The translations under genes and the position numbers were made by a program. The notes beneath the pieces were generated by a model. It saw only the letters and a list, made by a program, of their open reading frames with translations, did no database searches and was not told the origin of the DNA. A DNA stretch of 61,394 bases, the filler included. It is 6 parts of 6 records of this genome, joined end to end, with 100 filler letters (N's around TTAATTAATTAA, not from the genome) between each part and the next. Parts side by side here need not be neighbours in the genome. Positions count along the whole stretch, not along the records: positions 28,950 to 37,079 come from SRR20825006_1204; 5 more parts are not named here. One strand, given 5' to 3'. Of this stretch, positions 17,483 to 53,527 are shown in pieces; positions within the stretch are counted from its first letter, which is position 1, and every line of letters starts with the position of its first letter.

Positions 17483-17582
17483 NNNNNNNNNNNNNNNNNN
17501 NNNNNNNNNNNNNNNNNNNNNNNNNNTTAATTAATTAANNNNNNNNNNNNNNNNNNNNNNNNNNNNNNNNNNNNNNNNNNNN
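17483..17582. other. artificial contig spacer
   Basis: N44-TTAATTAATTAA-N44, which places stops in all six frames. Confidence 0.97.
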
Positions 17583-27244: not shown

Positions 27245-28849
27245 GTGAACTCCAACGCGACATCAAATTCCTCCCTGCCCGTTATCATCCGTACGGCGAC
27301 CCGGTCCGATCTGGATGGCCTTTGCGCTCTTGAAAGTGGCAGCTTCACAAGCGACGCGATTTCACGATCGGGCTTTTCGCGCTTCCTGCGCCAATCTTCC
27401 GCCCGTCTTCTGGTCGCCGATGCCGGCGAAAGCGGAACACCCGATATCGTCGGTTATGGCCTGCTTTTGCTGCGCGCCAATACGACAACGGCACGGATTT
27501 ATTCGCTGGCAATTTCCGATAAGTGGCGCGGCAAGGGCCTTGGCACCCAACTTCTGGCCGGGCTTGAAAACCTGGCGATTGATGCCGGATGTGTGCGTAT
27601 CCGCCTTGAAGTCCGTGTTGAAAACAGCAATGCCCGCAATCTTTATGATCGCCATGGCTATCAACAGATTGCCGATCTGCCCGGTTATTACGAAGACGGG
27701 GCCGATGGCATTCGCCTGCAACATGATCTTTATGATATTCCGACCGAACGGTCCCCTGCGGTTGCAACCGGTGCCCCCCTGATCCTTGTGGACCGCCTCA
27801 AGGATCTGCCGTTTCAGGTGCCCGGTGCGCGCATCATGCGGGTGCGCGAATATCTTGCGCTTGACCACGGGGTCCGCAACCGGCGTGTGATCAACCTGTG
27901 TCAGTCCTATGAATATCTGTCACGCGGCTATTATTGCAGCTTGCTTGCCGCCGCACGCAGCGAACGCGTGATCCCCGAAGCCGACGTGCTTCTGGATCTG
28001 AACTGGAAACGGCTGCAAAAAACCGCCCGCGCGGAAATGAGCTCGCAAATCGTCGAAGCATTGACCAAACCCGGCGATCACCCGACCAGAATTGACGTCT
28101 TTTTCGGCCGCACCGTCGATAAGCGTTTTCGCGATATCGCGCAACGCGCCTTCGATCAGTTCCGCTGCCCGATCCTGCGCCTGCATCTGAACCCGTCGGA
28201 TAAGAAAATCCTGCGCGAAATCGAAGCCCCAGCCCTAAGCCAACTGGATGCCGAAGACCTGCCCGCCTTTGAAAGTGCCATTCGTGCCTATCTGCGCGGT
28301 CGCGTGCGCAAACCGGCATCTGGCGGCAATCCGCCAAGTGCGCTGGTGGCAATCCTCCATGATCCCGATGCGGTTCTGCCGCCATCCGATAATGACGCAT
28401 TGGCCCTGTTCGTTCAGGCCGCAGCCGACCTTGGTGCCAAGGCCGAACTGATCACCGCCAAGGATTTCCACCATCTGTCGGAATTTGATGCGCTGCTGAT
28501 CCGCGAAACCACCGCCCTTGATCATCATACCTATCGTTTTGCCAAGCGCGCGCGCAAGGAAGGCATTCCGGTGATTGACGATCCGGACTCAATCCTGCGC
28601 TGCACGAACAAGGTCTATCTTGCCGAATTGCTGCGCACGCACCGCATCCCGGCCCCGCGCAGCATGATTTTCGATAAACGCCGCATTGCCGAAATCGGCA
28701 AGCTGTTCAGCTTCCCCTCGGTCCTGAAGGTGCCCGATGGCTGCTTCTCGCGCGGGGTGCGCAAGGTGAAATCGCCCGAACATCTGGCCGAAGTCGCGAC
28801 CGAAATGTTCAAAAACTCGGAACTTCTGGTCATTCAGGAATATGTCGAA
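27245..28849 (+). CDS. GNAT acetyltransferase fused to RLAN + RimK-type ATP-grasp ligase, 3' end cut by the gap
   Basis: N-terminal GNAT (RIYSLA, RGKGLG, LEVRVEN, GYYEDG), then RLAN (INLC..Y.YLSRGYYCSLLAAAR) and ATP-grasp (IRET, CTNKVYL, LKVPDG.FSRGV, QEYV). Confidence 0.85.
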
Positions 28850-28949
28850 NNNNNNNNNNNNNNNNNNNNNNNNNNNNNNNNNNNNNNNNNNNNTTAATTA
28901 ATTAANNNNNNNNNNNNNNNNNNNNNNNNNNNNNNNNNNNNNNNNNNNN
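28850..28949. other. artificial contig spacer
   Basis: N44-TTAATTAATTAA-N44. Confidence 0.97.
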
Positions 28950-29052
28950 GGTTTTGGTTCCGATGTGAAGCATCGGATTCACCGAATGGGTGCATACATT
29001 GAGGGCCATCATCGCGGCCCCGAACAGCTCACAGAAGCACGTCTGGCGGGCG
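28950..29052 (+). mobile_element. IS630-family transposase 5' remnant
   Basis: The + frame encodes LRAIIAAPNSSQKHVWRA, which I recall as the N-terminus of alphaproteobacterial IS630 transposases (..PQKHVWRARIVLL). Similarity stops abruptly. Confidence 0.5.
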
Positions 29053-29382
29053 CTGCGCAGCTCTGTTTTCGGTGGCCTGCGTCCAGCCGCTGAAGCTAAC
29101 AATCACGCCGCGAGAAGCTTGGACGTCGTGCATCATGCCTTCGAACGCTTCGACTTCTTTCACGTCAATTTTTCGCTTTCGTCTTTTCGCATCATAGATA
29201 ATGCGCCGAGCGACACCTTCTTCCCACCGCGCATCGACCATAATGTCGATCTGGCGCTTAACGCCGCTGATCGAACCCGTTAAAGATGCATTTGGAGTAA
29301 CAGAGACATCCATAGCAGCAGCGTTGATCTCGAAACACGCTGCGACGCGTTCATATACCCGCCAATCTGGTGTGTCTGTCAT
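29029..29382 (-). CDS. restriction endonuclease-fold (Mrr-like PD-(D/E)XK) protein, probably 3'-truncated
   Basis: WRVYE, G.SGVKRQIDI, YDAKRRKRKIDVKEVEAF, GVIVSFSGWT. It ends inside the IS630 remnant. Confidence 0.7.
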   Translation of the reverse strand: MTDTPDWRVYERVAACFEINAAAMDVSVTPNASLTGSISGVKRQIDIMVDARWEEGVARRIIYDAKRRKRKIDVKEVEAFEGMMHDVQASRGVIVSFSGWTQATENRAAQRPPDVLL

Positions 29383-29416
29383 CGCCAATTCATCCAACTT
29401 CAAAGTGGTGGCGCAT

Positions 29417-30376
29417 CTATTCCCTCCCGAATGACAATACCTTGTCCATTTCACGTGGAGAGACGGGGATACGGTCGGTCAGATCGACGTCGAAACGTAC
29501 ATTCTCGATGAGCGAGTCCGGAGCAACTTCAGGAACGGGGACGGTTGCGGCATCAAGAACGACTAATGACGTTCCATCGGGAAATACGCCCAGCTTAAAC
29601 GCGTTACGGTAGATATCACGCCCGCCCTTGACCAGACATTGCGCCAAAAACCGTGGGCGCAGATCATCATCGCGGATCTTACAGTACACCTCGTCCATAA
29701 GGTCTGCCGCCGTGCGGCCGGCATTGAGTTCCACAACAACAAGCGAGGCAACATAAACCTGGAACTCACCGCCGGGACGAAGTTGATCGAGCGTAAACCG
29801 GTGCTTCCGCCGGGACCGAAGCGTTGTTTTGGCTTCAAGTGCAAAGCCTTCGGTCACGTAGTCATACTTGGCGTTCTTGCTGAGGCACCAGCATCGGACA
29901 GCCGTATCGAGGTTGTGCGCGCGCGACAGGATATGGAGTTCACCCCACAGGCCGACTATATCCCCTTCTGACTCGACAATCTGCCTGAACAGGTCGGCCA
30001 ACTCCAGGATGCAGGCGGCAATCTCCTTATTGGTGTAGGGCGTCGTGCGGACCTGAAACGTCTCTTCGAGAAGCCGCAGCATCATCCGCGCAATATCGGG
30101 ATCGTTCTCATTCACGCGCACGATCGTGAAGATGCCTGACGTCGCCTGGCCATCGGCGGCTTCGATCCCGCAGTCCCGTGAAAAACGAACTGAGACGGAT
30201 CGTAACTCAATATCGCTCCGGGCCTCCTCCCGGCGCGACGCAAATAGCAAAAAAGGATAGGCATCACAGTCTACCGACAACCACACCGTATTATCAGCCG
30301 TTAAAGCCTGCCCGAACAACTGGTCGCAGTCGTCCGGGATGTCGCTTACCAGCTTTGCATAGGTTTCGAAGAGCAC
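29417..30376 (-). CDS. PD-(D/E)XK motif protein (DUF4420-like)
   Basis: GLWGEL..L, W, KYDY, LEAKTT..RKHRF...QL. GTG start 7 nt after the Z1 stop (ORF track extends it to 30403). Confidence 0.8.
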   Translation of the reverse strand: MLFETYAKLVSDIPDDCDQLFGQALTADNTVWLSVDCDAYPFLLFASRREEARSDIELRSVSVRFSRDCGIEAADGQATSGIFTIVRVNENDPDIARMMLRLLEETFQVRTTPYTNKEIAACILELADLFRQIVESEGDIVGLWGELHILSRAHNLDTAVRCWCLSKNAKYDYVTEGFALEAKTTLRSRRKHRFTLDQLRPGGEFQVYVASLVVVELNAGRTAADLMDEVYCKIRDDDLRPRFLAQCLVKGGRDIYRNAFKLGVFPDGTSLVVLDAATVPVPEVAPDSLIENVRFDVDLTDRIPVSPREMDKVLSFGRE

Positions 30377-30383
30377 GGTAGGT

Positions 30384-32585
30384 CTACCTTTCGACCCAGA
30401 CACGCTCCATCAGATGATCGGGAATATGAACGGCCAGTGTCGGAACGTCTCTGATCGTCCGTTTCTTGTCCGCAGTCTGGATGTCATAGCGATGGAGTTG
30501 GAACGTGATCGTTTCGTCGGATATCAGCGCCCTGGTACCAGGATAGTTGGTCTTGGCGTTTTTACCCTGAAACAGGTTCTTGATCTTCGGCGGAACTTTG
30601 TCGCTGAGCGTACGCACTGCATTGACACCTGACCACGGCCCCGACAGGGCATAGAAGCTGCACCGCATATCCGGCTCTTCGGTGGCCAGCCGTTCAAGCC
30701 CTAGCATAAGGGCGGAATGCTGCAAGTTGTCGTCGGGCCATTTGTAGCGAAACTGACCGATCTTCGTGAGCACATCCGCTAGCCTAATATCGTCACTGAA
30801 CGCCGGAACGATCTGCTTGTCGTTCCAACCCTCTTCGCTGTATCGCATGAAATCAAACTCGGCGATGATCTCGTCCACCACCTCACGATTGTCGGACACG
30901 ATCTCGGAATCCTCGAAGGGATGGTCGGGTGTGATCCAGCCGCCACGCGCTTTGGACTGGTACATTTCTAGCAGGATGACCGAGTTGCGCGTAGGCTTCA
31001 GACTTTGATCGAGGAAATATGTGCGCCGCCACGCTTTCAACGTTTTATCGTTCTCAAGGTGATGACGGATCGATCCGCGAATGGATTCCTCGTGTTTCAC
31101 ATAGTCGGTAAATGCATCGATATTCTCGGTTGTCAAATATATCCTACACAGACCGAGATAGCCCTTCTTGTATCCGAAGAACCGCGCACGTTGCTGGATA
31201 TTGTCGGCATTGCCGACGCCTGTAGAGCGTGGCATGTAGCTCACTGTCAGCCCTTCGACCGTGAAGCCCCGGTCAAGGCCGATCCCGCCAACTAGAATCC
31301 AGCTATACTCGCCCTTCCAGTCTATGCTCGGGATTCGGTTCTTTTCACGGGTGTTGAGTTCGACCACCGCCGTTTCCTCGATGGCGTCGAATAGCACGGA
31401 CAGTATGTCATCGAAGGTTAAGGAGGTTTCGTAGGTCTTGAAGAGTTCCTGCGCAGATGCCTCGAAAGCGACAACCAGGTCGCCGTAGTCCTCATGATCC
31501 TCATCCTGCAAGATGACCGACCAGTTCTCCTTGGTCTGCTTCACCCACCGTGCGAACATCAAATGTTCGTCCTTCGGAACAGCGGGATGAATTATCATGG
31601 AACGGTTGCGGCCCTGCTGGTCATCCTCTTCAAGCAAACCGATGGACACGCCGACAAAATAATCACGCAATGCGGCCAAGAGGCTCTTCGGCGGCTCGTG
31701 TGGCGGGTTGTTCTTGTCTGGAACGTCACCGAGCGGTATCGGCTCGATATACCGGCTTGCGCCCTCGACAAAGAACTCCTGCCCGCCGACATATTTACTG
31801 CCGGGCGTCAGTACGCGCCCGAAGTCGGGGGACAGCGTATCGATACGGCTGATCAGCAACGGAGCCTGCGGCGTAGCTGTGTAGAGCAAGTAGCTGTGAT
31901 GCGGAAACAACCGGCGGAGTTCGACAATCCTTGAGTATGTTGTGCTTTCTTCGTTTTGCTTGGCGCGGGTGTTTATCCCGGCCTGATCGCCTTCATCGTC
32001 GATGATCAGGGTCGGCACATCGGACAGATCGGAATCCGACAGCAGCGTTGCCAGATTGTCGAGATGCTGGTGCTGCTTCATGGAGACGATCAAGATCGTC
32101 CGTGCGCGGGGATTGCCCCGTCGCCAGCGGGCGAGTTCCATGTTTACACGGTCCAGTTCGCTCTGCTGGAAGCCCTTTTGCTGCGTCGAGAACAGCTTCC
32201 ACTCGCGCGTGCCTTCAATGTCCAGATCGTCTTTGAGACGGGAATGGGATTGCTCGACCAGATTGTTTGTTGTGCCCGCCAGAAAAATGACAAGGCGGTA
32301 CTGATTATCTCGCGCGAGTGCGGCCAGGCTGGTAAAAGATAGGGTTTTGCCGCTCTGGACATAGCCGATAACCAGGCCGGTATTGACCTCGCTCGCCTGC
32401 GATGGATCAACACACTCACTCAAGATCGAGGTTGTCTCTTCGACCAACCGTCTCTTTTCTCCATCGGATAAGGCATCGTTCGCGTTCAGCATATCGGTGA
32501 AGGCGCCGCCCTGTACCGGCCTCCATGTTTCTTCGCTTGCTGATGTGGTCGGCGCGACCCTGATAATGCTTTTCGTATCAGCCAT
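30384..32585 (-). CDS. Z1-domain SF2 helicase-like protein
   Basis: Walker A GYVQSGKT, IIDDEGD, YTATPQ, and Z1-type SMIIHP, ILVGG..LDRGFTVEGLTVSY, D.IQQRARFFGY. Confidence 0.88.
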   Translation of the reverse strand: MADTKSIIRVAPTTSASEETWRPVQGGAFTDMLNANDALSDGEKRRLVEETTSILSECVDPSQASEVNTGLVIGYVQSGKTLSFTSLAALARDNQYRLVIFLAGTTNNLVEQSHSRLKDDLDIEGTREWKLFSTQQKGFQQSELDRVNMELARWRRGNPRARTILIVSMKQHQHLDNLATLLSDSDLSDVPTLIIDDEGDQAGINTRAKQNEESTTYSRIVELRRLFPHHSYLLYTATPQAPLLISRIDTLSPDFGRVLTPGSKYVGGQEFFVEGASRYIEPIPLGDVPDKNNPPHEPPKSLLAALRDYFVGVSIGLLEEDDQQGRNRSMIIHPAVPKDEHLMFARWVKQTKENWSVILQDEDHEDYGDLVVAFEASAQELFKTYETSLTFDDILSVLFDAIEETAVVELNTREKNRIPSIDWKGEYSWILVGGIGLDRGFTVEGLTVSYMPRSTGVGNADNIQQRARFFGYKKGYLGLCRIYLTTENIDAFTDYVKHEESIRGSIRHHLENDKTLKAWRRTYFLDQSLKPTRNSVILLEMYQSKARGGWITPDHPFEDSEIVSDNREVVDEIIAEFDFMRYSEEGWNDKQIVPAFSDDIRLADVLTKIGQFRYKWPDDNLQHSALMLGLERLATEEPDMRCSFYALSGPWSGVNAVRTLSDKVPPKIKNLFQGKNAKTNYPGTRALISDETITFQLHRYDIQTADKKRTIRDVPTLAVHIPDHLMERVWVER

Positions 32586-34155
32586 TCATTAATCTCTTCG
32601 ACATCTGGTTTTTCAAAATTTCATTAGTGTAACGGCGGACGGCAGCCGGATTCTTGTCGGCCAATTCACCGGCCACGACCTCGGCGAGCGCCATTGCGGC
32701 GGCGATGTTAAGAATGGCTGTAAAGCTTTCCGAATCCATCGTCGGAAACTGCGCCATGAAAGGGTGCAACATTGCCACGCGCACTGTCACCTGGCGCGGT
32801 TCGGGATCAGTGATCGAGGGGCGATCACGGATGGTAAGCCACTCGGCGGTATCTTCGGCATAGGACAACTCGATGGCAACCCCCCATATCTCGCTGCGAA
32901 AACGCAGCCTGAACTCGGCCTGTTCCATATCAGCACTATCTAGGTCGGGAAGCGTTTCGTTATGCGGCTCTGATCTGTCGTCCACCCCAGATAGCGCCGC
33001 AGGATTCGCGCCGCCTGTATTCTCGTTCGCGGCTAAGGTCGCGTCCTGAAGGCTGGATACGGTCGTGTTCAGCGCGGCGGCGGCATCTTTGCGCGTGGCC
33101 TTTGCGCTGGTCTTAGTGCGGTGTTCCCGTGCCTGCTGCAATAGCGGGTATCTTTCTTCAGAAACACTTTTGCGCAACTTGCGCAGAAACTCATCCTCAC
33201 TCTCTTCCCACTTGATCCCGTCCTTGGTGTGGGAAACGAAGAACCCTTTCAGATGAATTTCTCCGAATATCCGCTGGTAGGGATAGGTGTTCGAGCGTCC
33301 AAAAATATCCTCCGGCCGATACGCTTCATCGGCGCTGCCCATGATCAGTCGTTTGCGCCGAAAAAGAGCAAGACCAGCAAGCCTTGTACTGGCCGTCTCG
33401 CGGATCGCCACAAAACCCGACGCTGACTTGCCGTCACCAAGATCAAAGTTTATCGGCAACTTCCATTCTACCGGTTCTCCATCGGGCTCGCGGTAACTGG
33501 GCGCGGTCAGGATAGTCGGACTCTCATAGCTCAACTCCTGGCCATCGACGTAAAGAGCAAGCGACCCTTCGCGGATAAAGACCCGGTAGATGCTGGACAG
33601 GTGCTCTTTGATCTTCTGGATGGTCTTGCCGCGCGGAAAACGGCGAATGTTTTCAAGACGGATCTCAGTGTAATGCTTGTCTTCGGACACCTTCCATGAC
33701 AACACGTTCAACTCTTCTGTGCTGTCATGGACGATCTCGTCGATATCGAAGATGACGGTGCGCTCGTCGTTGTCACCAAGCGCGCTGGACCGTACGCTCC
33801 AATTCGGAGCGAACCAACAGGCCGCGCTCTTCATCCCCATACCGAACTCCGACAGGCCAGATGCATCGAGCGGAACTTCTGCCGGACGAAACGCTCGTTG
33901 GTAATCACCTGAAGCGATCCCGGCGGCGTTATCCTTGATCGTGATTAGGTTTCCGGGCTCATCGAAATCAATCTCGACACGCAGCATATAGTTACCACCA
34001 TCAGCAGCCTGGAGCGCCTTTTTGTTGTCTATGCTGCTCTGGAGCGAGTTATCGACAAACTCGGCCAAGGCAAACCATGCCTTATAATTCAGGTGAGGAA
34101 GGACGGATAGAACATTGACACCGGGACGGATATTTACTGAGTTAATCTGCGCCAT
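32578..34155 (-). CDS. GHKL (MORC/MutL-like) ATPase
   Basis: N-box LAEFVDNS, G1 IKDNAAGI, G2 GLSEFGMGMKSA, followed by an S5-like region. Confidence 0.85.
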   Translation of the reverse strand: MAQINSVNIRPGVNVLSVLPHLNYKAWFALAEFVDNSLQSSIDNKKALQAADGGNYMLRVEIDFDEPGNLITIKDNAAGIASGDYQRAFRPAEVPLDASGLSEFGMGMKSAACWFAPNWSVRSSALGDNDERTVIFDIDEIVHDSTEELNVLSWKVSEDKHYTEIRLENIRRFPRGKTIQKIKEHLSSIYRVFIREGSLALYVDGQELSYESPTILTAPSYREPDGEPVEWKLPINFDLGDGKSASGFVAIRETASTRLAGLALFRRKRLIMGSADEAYRPEDIFGRSNTYPYQRIFGEIHLKGFFVSHTKDGIKWEESEDEFLRKLRKSVSEERYPLLQQAREHRTKTSAKATRKDAAAALNTTVSSLQDATLAANENTGGANPAALSGVDDRSEPHNETLPDLDSADMEQAEFRLRFRSEIWGVAIELSYAEDTAEWLTIRDRPSITDPEPRQVTVRVAMLHPFMAQFPTMDSESFTAILNIAAAMALAEVVAGELADKNPAAVRRYTNEILKNQMSKRLMNG

Positions 34156-35456
34156 TATTCCGCTGCGACCGCTATGGTTTTGGTCTCTTCAAGAGATGGT
34201 CGAGTAATCAGGGCATCGTAGATGTGTAGGACCACATCAACATTCACCGCATTGCCAAACGCCTTGTAGGCGCCGTTCTTCGAGTCAGGAAGATGCTCAA
34301 GACCTCCCATGCTCTGCAAACGACTGCATTCGCGGGGTGTCATGTAGCGCTGTTTCCAAGCGATAATCGGTACTTGGCTTGTCGTCATGGCAATCAGCGA
34401 CGGCGCTGTGTCGCTCTTTTTGACGCGGATACCGCTGGCCCGAAATTGCAGTAGATGCTCCCAGATATTCCGCTCGCTACCCTTGCAGTTCCATTCCAAT
34501 TTCTGGAAGCTTGGCGGAAAGTCCCTGATCTTGTGAATCCAGCCATTGATCAACGCCTTGTGCCGGGCATAGAAGTCACGGTTCTTCTGAATGAAATCGA
34601 TCTTCCAGTCCGGGAAAGTATCGAGTTCCGTAAGCGCATAACCCGGAAGTGCGTCTTTGACCGCTTCGGTAGATAGATCCTTGAGGGGCTGACCGAATGC
34701 GCCCTGATATTTTCCCAGAGCCTTGTACTCGCGCTTGTAGGGTGTGGCTCCGTCAAGCGGGTAGTCCGCGCCGAACTCCATTGCCCAAATCGGAAAAGAC
34801 GGAAGTTCCTCTTCCTTCGGGAAGGCGGCGATAAATTCCTGCCAAGTCTCAAGGTATTTGATGTGATTCTCGTTAAGAGCGTGCGCATCGACGGGATCGT
34901 CATCAAGAATTGACCGGATGGAGATTTCCGGCAGGGCCTCCGGCATCTGCCAGTCAAACCCGTCCAAGCCTTTCCGATCCCCGACAATGAAGGCGCGTTC
35001 ACGCTTTTGCGGAATTCCGAACATATGCGGAGACAGCTTGGCGAAGTCGATATCGTAGTCTTCGCGGAGTTGGGAGCATATCTTCTCCCACGTTTCGCCG
35101 CCATTGTGCTTGATCAGGTTAGGCACGTTCTCGATGATAAAATAGCGCGGTTGCTTAAGCTTGAGGATTTCGACTACATAATCAAACAGGTTGCCCCATT
35201 GCGGGCACTCCAATCCTTTTTGCTCGCCGGCCTTTGAGAACGGTTGGCAGGGAAACCCAGCACACAGGATATCATGATCCGGGATGGACGCAAGATCGAC
35301 GGCACGAATATCGCCGTGCGGCTCAATCCCGAAATTCTTTTCGTACAGTTTCGACAGGTGTGTATTGAGTTCGGATGCGAAGACACATTCTGCCCCACGC
35401 TGTGATAGCGCCTGGTGAAAACCGCCCAATCCTGCAAAAAGATCGATAAATTTCAT
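34155..35456 (-). CDS. dcm: DNA (cytosine-5)-methyltransferase with a long variable region
   Basis: Motif I DLFAGLGG, IV GFPCQPFS, VI ENV, VIII PQKRER, IX RYMTPRECSRLQ, X FGNAV. Confidence 0.93.
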   Translation of the reverse strand: MKFIDLFAGLGGFHQALSQRGAECVFASELNTHLSKLYEKNFGIEPHGDIRAVDLASIPDHDILCAGFPCQPFSKAGEQKGLECPQWGNLFDYVVEILKLKQPRYFIIENVPNLIKHNGGETWEKICSQLREDYDIDFAKLSPHMFGIPQKRERAFIVGDRKGLDGFDWQMPEALPEISIRSILDDDPVDAHALNENHIKYLETWQEFIAAFPKEEELPSFPIWAMEFGADYPLDGATPYKREYKALGKYQGAFGQPLKDLSTEAVKDALPGYALTELDTFPDWKIDFIQKNRDFYARHKALINGWIHKIRDFPPSFQKLEWNCKGSERNIWEHLLQFRASGIRVKKSDTAPSLIAMTTSQVPIIAWKQRYMTPRECSRLQSMGGLEHLPDSKNGAYKAFGNAVNVDVVLHIYDALITRPSLEETKTIAVAAE

Positions 35457-35675
35457 ATACTTGTACTGTCCAGCGCTTTTTCCTTCCAGACTACACGCAT
35501 ATGATCGCCTTCGCAACACAGGATGCAGTCGCACTGCATCATATTGGTGGATTGCAAGCCATCAACACCAGATTATTTAGCCGTTCGCTATGATTCTGAG
35601 CTTGTTGCAATCATGCAGGACGCGGTGCGTCAACCATGTGCGCAATCCGAAGCCAAAGGTTCTCGTGATGGACCT

Positions 35676-36105
35676 TCAGGAACGTGGCAGGTGCAGGAGC
35701 ATTGTGAACCGCGTCGTGCGTTCCACCAGCGTGCCGATTGCCGAGCTGCCAAGACCGAGAATGAGGCCGCCCTCCCAATGGCCAGGCACTGCTCTTTCGC
35801 CGATCTCGGACGGACGTTCGCTGATCACCAACGCATCCGTCAGAAAAAAAATACCGCGGTTACGAACACGTTCTCGGGGCAAACGCAGCGCCCGGCCGGA
35901 GCGGATACAAGCCGCGAACTCTCGTCTCAAGGCACCTCGGCCCTGAATGTAGAGCGCCTGATAGATAGCTTCGTGGCTGATCCGCATGGTCATGTCCTCT
36001 GGGAAGCCCAACTTCAGACGCCTCGCAATCTGTTCCAGGCTCCAAGCCTTAGACCAGCGTCGACTTTGCCGATGAACGGCCCGCCGTCCTTTCCACCCAT
36101 TATTT
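35676..36105 (-). pseudogene. IS30-family transposase internal fragment
   Basis: WKGRR...WSLEQIARRL..FPEDMTMRISHEAIYQALY...ISERP...RAVPGHWEGG...IGTLVERTTR. The catalytic WEGD is WEGG, there is an early stop, and both ends are missing. Confidence 0.85.
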
Positions 36106-36125
36106 TTCCGGGGGAACTACCAACT

Positions 36126-36620
36126 CTACCTATACCTTTTTGCCCTGGACAGGATCTCGCCTACCACGGCCTTAAGCGCCATGTTTGCATTGATCTTGAT
36201 CCCATCCGGGATATCTTCCTGTGTCTCGTGAAGGCGTAAGATGAGTTTTCTCTCTTCCGGGCATGAACCGAACTCATTCTCGGGCCTCTGGTCAAGTCGT
36301 TGACTCAACGTGTCGCGGTCAATATCCAAAATGAAAACCCCGTCGAACAGGTGCAGGAATTGCCGAAAATTCCGGGATCCGCCACAAAAGAAAGTTAAAG
36401 CTTGGCGGTGATCTTCTACATAGGCTCTGACCTTGCTGATATCCCATATGTGGTGTTCGTGACATGAACCATCCAGCGGCTGCCCGGTTTCAGGGTCCCC
36501 TTGATAGGCCAGCTCTCGGTCACCGTGAATCGCCTGATAGCCACGACGTTCAAGTTCCGTCGCTACTGAGGTTTTGCCACTGCACGATACACCTTCGATT
36601 AGATAGTTTCTTTGTCCCAT
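36126..36620 (-). CDS. small P-loop kinase (nucleoside/nucleotide kinase-like)
   Basis: LIEGVSCSGKTSV Walker A, FFCGG and lid-like LSQRLDQR. RBS AAGGGG. Confidence 0.75.
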   Translation of the reverse strand: MGQRNYLIEGVSCSGKTSVATELERRGYQAIHGDRELAYQGDPETGQPLDGSCHEHHIWDISKVRAYVEDHRQALTFFCGGSRNFRQFLHLFDGVFILDIDRDTLSQRLDQRPENEFGSCPEERKLILRLHETQEDIPDGIKINANMALKAVVGEILSRAKRYR

Positions 36621-37048
36621 TTGTTGCCCCTTCTTGAGATGGATAGTCGATGACAGGTTACTTCGCACATGGAGTTAAACCGCATTGGGTGAAGGCGACA
36701 ATATTGAACTTCGATGTCGACAAAGCGCAGGCAATTGACGCAAGCGTCTGCGTTCATCGGCAAGACACCTTCTTAGGTAGAGCCAGTCGGCTTCCCTAAC
36801 CAGGTATCCGGAACCTCAGGTTGCTGCCAATCTGGTGAATGTGGTTTGACGAGTGTCCGCCGCTCTTCTTTTATGTTCGCGACAAGTTCCATTTCATGAG
36901 TCGCTCAGGCAGATTGAACTAGCTGCGAAATTTTCTTGAAGGTGCTGAACCTTCGAAGATCCGGTTACGGTTACCACATGATCCTGTGACAAATGCCACG
37001 CGAGGGTCGCAACATGCGGTGAGCAGCCCCGCTGTTCGGCAATCTCAA

Positions 37049-37079
37049 CTAGGGTCTGTGGGGATTCACAAATCAGCGC
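37049..37079. mobile_element. probable IS5-family terminal inverted repeat at the contig end
   Basis: CTAGGGTCTGTGGGGATTCAC resembles, from memory, alphaproteobacterial IS5-family ends with a CTAG/TA target. It coincides with the assembly break. Confidence 0.4.
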
Positions 37080-37179
37080 NNNNNNNNNNNNNNNNNNNNN
37101 NNNNNNNNNNNNNNNNNNNNNNNTTAATTAATTAANNNNNNNNNNNNNNNNNNNNNNNNNNNNNNNNNNNNNNNNNNNN
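37080..37179. other. artificial contig spacer
   Basis: N44-TTAATTAATTAA-N44. Confidence 0.97.
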
Positions 37180-43318: not shown

Positions 43319-43418
43319 NNNNNNNNNNNNNNNNNNNNNNNNNNNNNNNNNNNNNNNNNNNNTTAATTAATTAANNNNNNNNNNNNNNNNNNNNNNNNNN
43401 NNNNNNNNNNNNNNNNNN
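43319..43418. other. artificial contig spacer
   Basis: N44-TTAATTAATTAA-N44. Confidence 0.97.
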
Positions 43419-53427: not shown

Positions 53428-53527
53428 NNNNNNNNNNNNNNNNNNNNNNNNNNNNNNNNNNNNNNNNNNNNTTAATTAATTAANNNNNNNNNNNNNNNNN
53501 NNNNNNNNNNNNNNNNNNNNNNNNNNN
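53428..53527. other. artificial contig spacer
   Basis: N44-TTAATTAATTAA-N44. Confidence 0.97.

Follow-up and report, generated by a model that had tools for sequence, protein, structure and literature searches.

A four-gene cassette of a C5 methylase, a MORC ATPase, a DEAD-Z1 motor and a DUF4420 nuclease as a candidate ATP-driven restriction-modification system

Gene content of the cassette

The subject of this analysis is a putative defence cassette found in a window of 61,394 nucleotides (nt), the whole stretch of DNA that was analysed, in which six contigs are joined end to end. The 100-nt N linkers that separate the window's contigs (17483-17582, 28850-28949, 37080-37179, 43319-43418 and 53428-53527) carry a word with stops in all frames. 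Because the cassette occupies a separate contig of its own, 8,130 nt in length (28950-37079), the genes beyond the linkers are not its neighbours. The initial annotation described an operon of five genes, and five minus-strand genes are indeed present, the last of which is fused to a fragment of an insertion sequence (IS). Protein lengths are given in amino acids (aa):

34155-35456, minus strand: C5 cytosine DNA methyltransferase, 433 aa (Pfam DNA_methylase 7.8e-65; NCBIfam dcm above cut-off)
32578-34155, minus strand: prokaryotic MORC ATPase, 525 aa (HATPase_c_3 3.8e-13; MORC family motif at residue 261)
30384-32585, minus strand: DEAD-Z1 superfamily 2 (SF2) helicase-like motor, 733 aa (Pfam Z1 5.5e-36; C-terminal domain at approximately 545-733)
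29417-30376, minus strand: DUF4420 PD-(D/E)XK nuclease, 319 aa (Pfam DUF4420 7.5e-15)
29029-29382, minus strand: truncated Mrr_cat-type nuclease gene, 117 aa, without the Cys-rich C-terminal half (Pfam Mrr_cat 9e-9)
28998-29051, plus strand: IS630 transposase fragment, 94% identical over 54 nt to an IS630 transposase, fused to the broken Mrr-like gene

All five domain calls scored above the Pfam cut-offs, and the junctions were found as first described, with TAATG at 34157-34153, an 8-nt overlap at 32578-32585, and a 7-nt gap between the Z1 and DUF4420 genes. Of the five genes, the first four are intact and closely coupled, but the fifth is a truncated pseudogene that is rarely adjacent to the others in relatives. 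Up to residue 111 the Mrr-like copy shares 85% identity with a relative of 222 aa, after which it ends in an unrelated 6-residue tail, the gene being interrupted at codon 111 by the IS630 fragment; intact relatives are 222-229 aa in length. An assembly artefact at this junction was not supported, as the junction lies within single contigs of three public runs, all of which belong to one study and may themselves be the source of the contig. Related loci were collected using either the ATPase as seed (57 from genomes and 19 from a viral collection, 76 in total) or the methylase (81 loci), and the Mrr-like gene was present in 5/76 of the former, one copy also being broken, and in 1/81 of the latter. 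A five-gene system was ruled out by the truncation, the IS630 junction and this occurrence, and the second nuclease, which had been proposed as the closing component, is a broken passenger outside the conserved system. Since the fifth gene is rare among the loci and broken here, the system, as read from the sequence, is one of four genes: C5-methylase, MORC ATPase, DEAD-Z1 motor and DUF4420 nuclease. Where the Mrr_cat nuclease is complete (loci L013, L014, L015, L020 and L090), it is an occasional cassette add-on of 222-229 aa whose C-terminal half is Cys-rich and probably zinc-binding.

Active sites and folds of the four proteins

The catalytic residues initially reported for the first four genes are all present, and they are conserved in alignments of relatives. 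In the methylase, P69, C70, E109-N110-V111, Q150, R152 and R154 were invariant among 59 aligned relatives, and a long conserved variable region spans approximately residues 185-365. In a set of 49 sequences, dereplicated at 70%, the putative target-recognition segment is the most conserved part of this protein (mean identity 0.65-0.67), ahead of the catalytic motifs (0.58-0.61). This region served to select the methylase-seeded loci but not the ATPase-seeded ones; because the latter show the same segment, a single target specificity throughout the methylase clade is likely. The target region may resemble that of M.AluI, and a site that contains AGCT is, at about even odds, our lead for the target. 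AluI is described as methylating the C of AGCT. When cassette genes were compared with flanking genes by codon shuffling, pooled over 57 loci, weak signals were obtained for CCGG (0.85), CCNGG (0.85) and AGCT (0.91), and GAGCT/AGCTC was the lowest 5-mer (0.73). A paired site-avoidance test on 39 dereplicated loci out of 83 ranked CCGG best among 64 motifs, with a p of 0.003 that was not significant after correction.

The ATPase comprises a GHKL domain, which carries four ATP-binding motifs, and after it an S5 domain, as expected of the MORC family (together approximately residues 10-349), a disordered linker (373-401), and an alpha/beta domain at the C-terminus (approximately 405-520). Residues E32, D35, N36, D75, G105/G107 and K311 were invariant in 53 sequences, as was T163. 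The motif that distinguishes MORC from paraMORC proteins, GhXhhpXXRhl, reads GLALFRRKRLI at residue 261 and was found in 56/56 locus ATPases and in 137 of 150 representatives. A structural model (pLDDT 79) gave SMCHD1 (Z 21.5), MORC2 (Z 19.9) and MORC3 (Z 19.6) as best folds, and was closer to these than to Hsp90, topo VI or MutL. The fold is shared with these eukaryotic proteins at a root-mean-square deviation of 3.1-4.0 over 277-301 residues, but sequence identity is 12-18%, and the cassette ATPase lacks the CW domain, coiled-coil and hinge, having instead the small alpha/beta C-terminal domain, for which middling zincin-like structural matches were obtained (Z ~6). A PDB sequence search with the ATPase returned a weak HtpG match only, and in the ESM Atlas the ATPase C-terminus and the methylase insert matched unnamed clusters only.

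A profile of the ATPase retrieved 966 clusters at E <= 1e-30, and the best 150 representatives were examined for added domains. N-terminal extensions of at least 60 residues were present in 18 of these; the other 132, including the window ATPase, have none. Ten of the 18 carry MTaX1, one more carries it in part, and SAP, HARE-HTH or HTH add-ons occur in several. The N-terminal domain of ATPase P0356 is McrB-N-like at a Pfam E of 0.0011, which is below the cut-off, and PDB sequence searches with the N-terminal add-ons of P0356 and P0312 confirmed nothing beyond HTH. One representative, on a single 5.5-kb contig, is fused to a complete methylase of the same clade, which could be a simple stop loss. 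In a subgroup from the viral collection (L072-L081), a gene of 245-260 aa follows DUF4420, with MTaX1 in 5/5 scanned, and the methylase target segment is shifted.

In the Z1 protein, the Walker A motif with Q77, D196-D197-E198, T236-A237-T238, H333/H341, R439 and Q465-x-x-R468 were invariant among 47 sequences, and the modelled structure has the dual-RecA fold of an SF2 motor; a PDB sequence search found no solved relative of this protein. The Z1 motif reads DNIQQRARFFG at residue 461, with D, Q, R and FG kept from the printed consensus DThhQXuRhFG. The strict consensus was present in 0/55 Z1 proteins and a relaxed version in 42/55, so that the motif holds for the family but not letter for letter. 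In the nuclease, E146, D172, K183 and H192 were invariant in 52 sequences and position 181 is E or D, with E146, D172 and E181-x-K183 forming the E-D-ExK arrangement of the restriction endonuclease fold. The N-terminal half of DUF4420 is poorly conserved, and overall identity is 18-28% in distant members. PADLOC assigned Helicase_II to Z1 (1.2e-44) and DruM as best model to the methylase, and had no model for the ATPase or the nuclease. No match to a PLD or B3 domain was obtained for any cassette gene in Pfam, PADLOC or NCBIfam.

Relatives of the cassette and its genomic setting

A synteny survey bore out the expectation that these genes are conserved together, as all four were intact in 60/76 ATPase-seeded loci from several phyla. 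Among the remaining 16 loci, contig ends truncate 7, an effector gene (ATPase, Z1 or nuclease) is lost or broken next to an intact methylase in 8, and in the last one the methylase is damaged, close to a contig start. This decay, 8 versus 1, runs in the direction expected of restriction-modification (R-M) systems, yet it is within the expectation from gene length. Using tblastn, the methylase was found at 57/57 ATPase-seeded genome loci. Hosts in the records include Alpha-, Beta- and Gammaproteobacteria, Acidobacteriota and Actinomycetota, together with plasmids of Rathayibacter and Hymenobacter; plasmids of Actinomycetota and Bacteroidota show the same gene order, with DUF4420 not annotated on those of Bacteroidota. 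Integrases, IS elements and plasmids are found near relatives. A Vsr gene adjoins the methylase in 6/57 loci, with none in the window, and HhH-GPD glycosylases are found in other loci, as would be expected beside an active 5-methylcytosine (5mC) enzyme. Mrr_cat, HNH and AspBHI-like nucleases are occasional neighbours. AIPR was absent from the 113 neighbouring proteins scanned (64 + 49), and an AIPR search of 5 whole genomes gave 0/5, with the control equally silent.

Unbiased draws of 400 genomes from each of two phyla were also searched for the ATPase (match at 1e-40). Besides the centre, 1 and 3 genomes matched, and 2/4 carry the full trio of MORC, Z1 and DUF4420, in one case with a distant convergent methylase. 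Locus L180 (1171-13870) contains AIPR, AlbA_2, a NOV_C protein, MORC, Z1, DUF4420, Vsr and a C5 methylase that is unrelated, together with a SacI-type endonuclease in convergent orientation; AIPR lies three genes upstream of this relative. The SacI site is GAGCTC, which includes AGCT.

Neighbours of the methylase clade also include PD-Lambda-5A-like ATPase pairs, DISARM-like helicases, a Zac cluster and a DUF262-Z1-DUF4420 set, and an unrooted FastTree tree places these contexts at several distinct positions among the methylases that are linked to MORC. Next to other effectors the methylase insert shows the same degree of conservation (0.43 vs 0.47), which, together with one trio that lacks this methylase, weakened its candidacy as a MORC-docking domain. 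Seven loci (L132, L137, L154, L156, L157, L159 and L161) pair the methylase clade with a PD-Lambda-5A/PDC-M38A-like protein of 360-390 aa in a recurring unnamed cassette, and most of them add a protein of 305-330 aa with no Pfam or PADLOC match. L143 and L153 hold the methylase clade with an HhH-GPD glycosylase, a GajB-like UvrD helicase, DrmA and DrmB, a DISARM-like set; a comparable neighbourhood is mentioned in the Tiamat preprint. On a Neorhizobium plasmid (L062:6001-13075) a DUF262 protein replaces MORC between the methylase clade and a distant Z1 and DUF4420, with frameshifts in the methylase and Z1 as recorded. In L121, a 1015-aa Z1, DUF4420 and the same methylase clade accompany ZacA, ZacB and ZacC, and MORC was not detected at this locus.

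The cassette contig was recovered as one unitig at 171-184x from two of the public runs, with no differences between them, and in pieces from the third. Two-copy repeats bound it at both ends. As first noted, it carries neither AIPR nor ankyrin-sigma genes, and IS debris flanks the cassette on both sides, the IS630 fragment at 28998-29051 lying downstream. Two further features lie upstream of the methylase:

35538-35565, minus strand: weak sigma-70-like site (9/12 matches), a candidate operon promoter; shuffles gave more sites than the scan, so it carries no functional weight
35683-36095, minus strand: IS30 transposase fragment, 81% identical over 413 nt to IS30 transposases

The -10-like word of the candidate promoter is present in 4/6 aligned relatives. 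Upstream of the IS30 fragment is an AAA_18 P-loop kinase-like gene of 164 aa (36126-36620, minus strand) that was not seen in the 57 related loci. The six contigs of the window have GC contents of 0.54-0.63 and a weak tetranucleotide correlation, and may come from more than one organism. A different contig carries a fusion of a GNAT acetyltransferase, RLAN and a RimK-like ATP-grasp domain (27245-28849, plus strand) that is interrupted by a linker.

Known systems, proposed mechanism and alternatives

A third type of MORC operon has been predicted, in which MORC is combined with a Z1-type SF2 helicase and an E-D-ExK nuclease, frequently joined by a cytosine methylase and Vsr, in a mobile and patchy distribution (Iyer 2008, PMC2292703). 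In the available text of that paper there is nothing of substance by which the cassette differs from this type; its Z1 motif is off the printed consensus at two positions, and the frequent methylase/Vsr neighbours are found here as well. The same text puts forward, as a prediction only, that DNA is looped between the sites of recognition and cleavage (PMC2292703). At locus L183 (399-4967, minus strand), an N4/N6 methylase and a Rad25/ResIII-like helicase accompany a more distant MORC, a set that fits the first of the operon types in Iyer 2008. A putative defence system with a core of Z1, a DUF4420-type PD-(D/E)XK nuclease and a cytosine methyltransferase, and with MORC association, was listed later (Miller 2022, PMC9523054). 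As far as its available text goes, its Z1 is approximately 925 aa versus 733 here, its MORC-linked type II has AIPR and its type I has six genes, whereas the cassette here has four genes and no AIPR. With the gene set described in PMC2292703 and the Z1, DUF4420 and cytosine methylase core in PMC9523054, the novelty first claimed for the operon was overstated. The accompanying statement that no mechanism had been characterized for such operons agrees with our survey: no bench study was found in the literature searched, which mostly did not extend to subscription journals, and the R-M-like role of MORC operons is still termed "proposed" in a preprint dated October 2026. The locus itself is ordinary; from its sequence, it is a real, intact and mobile member of a predicted class.

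Two groups of characterized systems share parts of the cassette. Mza is reported as an anti-phage system that gave no growth arrest and whose MzaD cuts T4 DNA in vitro (bioRxiv 2022.06.16.496414); it has a GHKL ATPase, Z1 and a DUF4420 nuclease in the same order. The kinship suggested initially is real and distant, with weak MzaC and MzaD scores and MzaB homology in 46/53 ATPases (best E 1.4e-7). The NCBIfam cut-offs were not reached by MzaC (114.9 vs 1500) or MzaD (13.5 vs 420), the window ATPase had no MzaB match, and the cassette, unlike Mza, is methylase-led and lacks MzaA and MzaE (AIPR). CglI, NgoAVII and BceSIV, which combine a C5 methylase with DEAD-Z1, are described as proven ATP-dependent R-M enzymes in PMC4267653 and PMC5861437. 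Set against the motifs given there (PMC5861437), the cassette motor has the Walker A Q (Q77), the H/H motif (H333/H341), the motif V Arg (R439) and the QxxR of motif VI (Q465/R468). Their nuclease, as depicted in the same sources, is a PLD with a site-reading B3 domain and there is no MORC, whereas here a PD-(D/E)XK nuclease is found with a MORC. A relationship to Druantia type II was not seen, as the near full-length match of the methylase to DruM (256 bits) was accompanied by no other Dru model.

We favour, with a probability of roughly 0.65, a mobile four-gene ATP-driven R-M system that uses 5mC as the self mark. The multi-subunit, restriction-like character outside types I-IV that was proposed initially would fit the synteny and the Vsr and HhH-GPD neighbours. 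Starting from the folds, active sites and linkage described above, we infer the activities and contacts as follows. The methylase, its enzyme class taken from its motifs, would set 5mC on one fixed short host site, and incoming unmethylated DNA would be engaged by an assembly of MORC, Z1 and nuclease. The GHKL-S5 dimer of MORC, with its modelled fold, may clamp or loop DNA as an ATP switch, a role suggested by Iyer 2008, MutL and MORC. With the motifs that it retains, DEAD-Z1 would translocate along double-stranded DNA in the way demonstrated for H.CglI, and DUF4420, through the active site found here, would cut, as its distant homologue MzaD does in vitro. A predicted complex of MORC and methylase scored 0.00 in a run without alignments or controls and carries no weight either way.

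Several observations weigh against this R-M reading. No sequence-recognition domain like B3 of R.CglI was identified in the MORC/Z1/DUF4420 trio, and the reader is therefore the main gap in the mechanism. The N-terminal half of DUF4420 is variable while the methylase target region is constant. The methylase clade serves other effector modules as well, and one of the two trios from the genome draws, with an ATPase 45% identical, adjoins Vsr and an unrelated SacI-type R-M pair; this trio, the trio with the distant methylase and the conservation of the insert count against a fixed methylase-MORC partnership. Mza is reported to protect with no methylase next to it and to restrict T4 whether its DNA has C, hydroxymethylcytosine (hmC) or glucosyl-hmC (bioRxiv 2022.06.16.496414), and since it acts in any of these cytosine states, a methyl mark may not be needed by the trio.

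An Mza-like defence, in which the methyl mark has no part in telling self from non-self, would account for that indifference to cytosine state. The trio would sense a phage-specific DNA state such as ends, replication structures or naked DNA and degrade it, with the methylase as a linked accessory; the trio beside the SacI-type methylase, the missing reader domain and the distant homology to MzaB, MzaC (115 bits) and MzaD are all compatible with this. We consider it unlikely, because a methylase that is present at 57/57 loci across phyla, and is usually translationally coupled, is linked too tightly for an accessory gene. A modification-dependent (Type IV-like) activity, with the trio attacking foreign-marked DNA and the methylase guarding against something else, is very improbable. 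Such a role could be read into the McrB-N-like domain of P0356, which is below the cut-off, and into the occasional Mrr_cat, HNH and AspBHI-like neighbours, but the window ATPase has no add-on, as in 132/150 relatives, and a 5mC-seeking nuclease next to a 5mC methylase must spare the host mark. The least probable reading is mainly selfish addiction or DNA maintenance, either by post-segregational killing that stabilises the island or by MutL/Vsr-style T:G mismatch repair at methylated sites. The mobile setting of relatives and the two-copy repeats that bound the contig suit this reading, and GHKL, helicase and nuclease parallel MutL/UvrD/Vsr; however, relatives add dedicated Vsr or glycosylase genes separately, and the homologous modules Mza and CglI are defensive. 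Addiction is itself compatible with restriction.

The variable N-terminal add-ons of the ATPase, and a methylase clade that serves unrelated motor modules, hint at a swappable DNA reader input. As a speculative extension, bacterial MORC might be a mark-sensing switch with an exchangeable N-terminal DNA-reader, and in the plain four-gene form the coupled methylase might itself read the site and license MORC, Z1 and nuclease. It is similarly tentative that in relatives the slot is filled by MTaX1, a McrB-N-like domain or a whole methylase, and that this arrangement was a precursor of the reader fusions in eukaryotic MORC proteins. If this were true, one protein would both mark self and target non-self, and the same methylase would plug into several unrelated motor modules. 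A proposal made in 2008 derives the eukaryotic MORC chromatin ATPases from prokaryotic MORC operons. With 966 ATPase clusters and no PADLOC model for the ATPase or nuclease, methylase-MORC-Z1-DUF4420 cassettes are probably under-annotated. The compact AIPR-free version described here, with four genes in approximately 6 kb, is close to a minimal test case for a MORC protein that links a methyl mark to a motor-nuclease.

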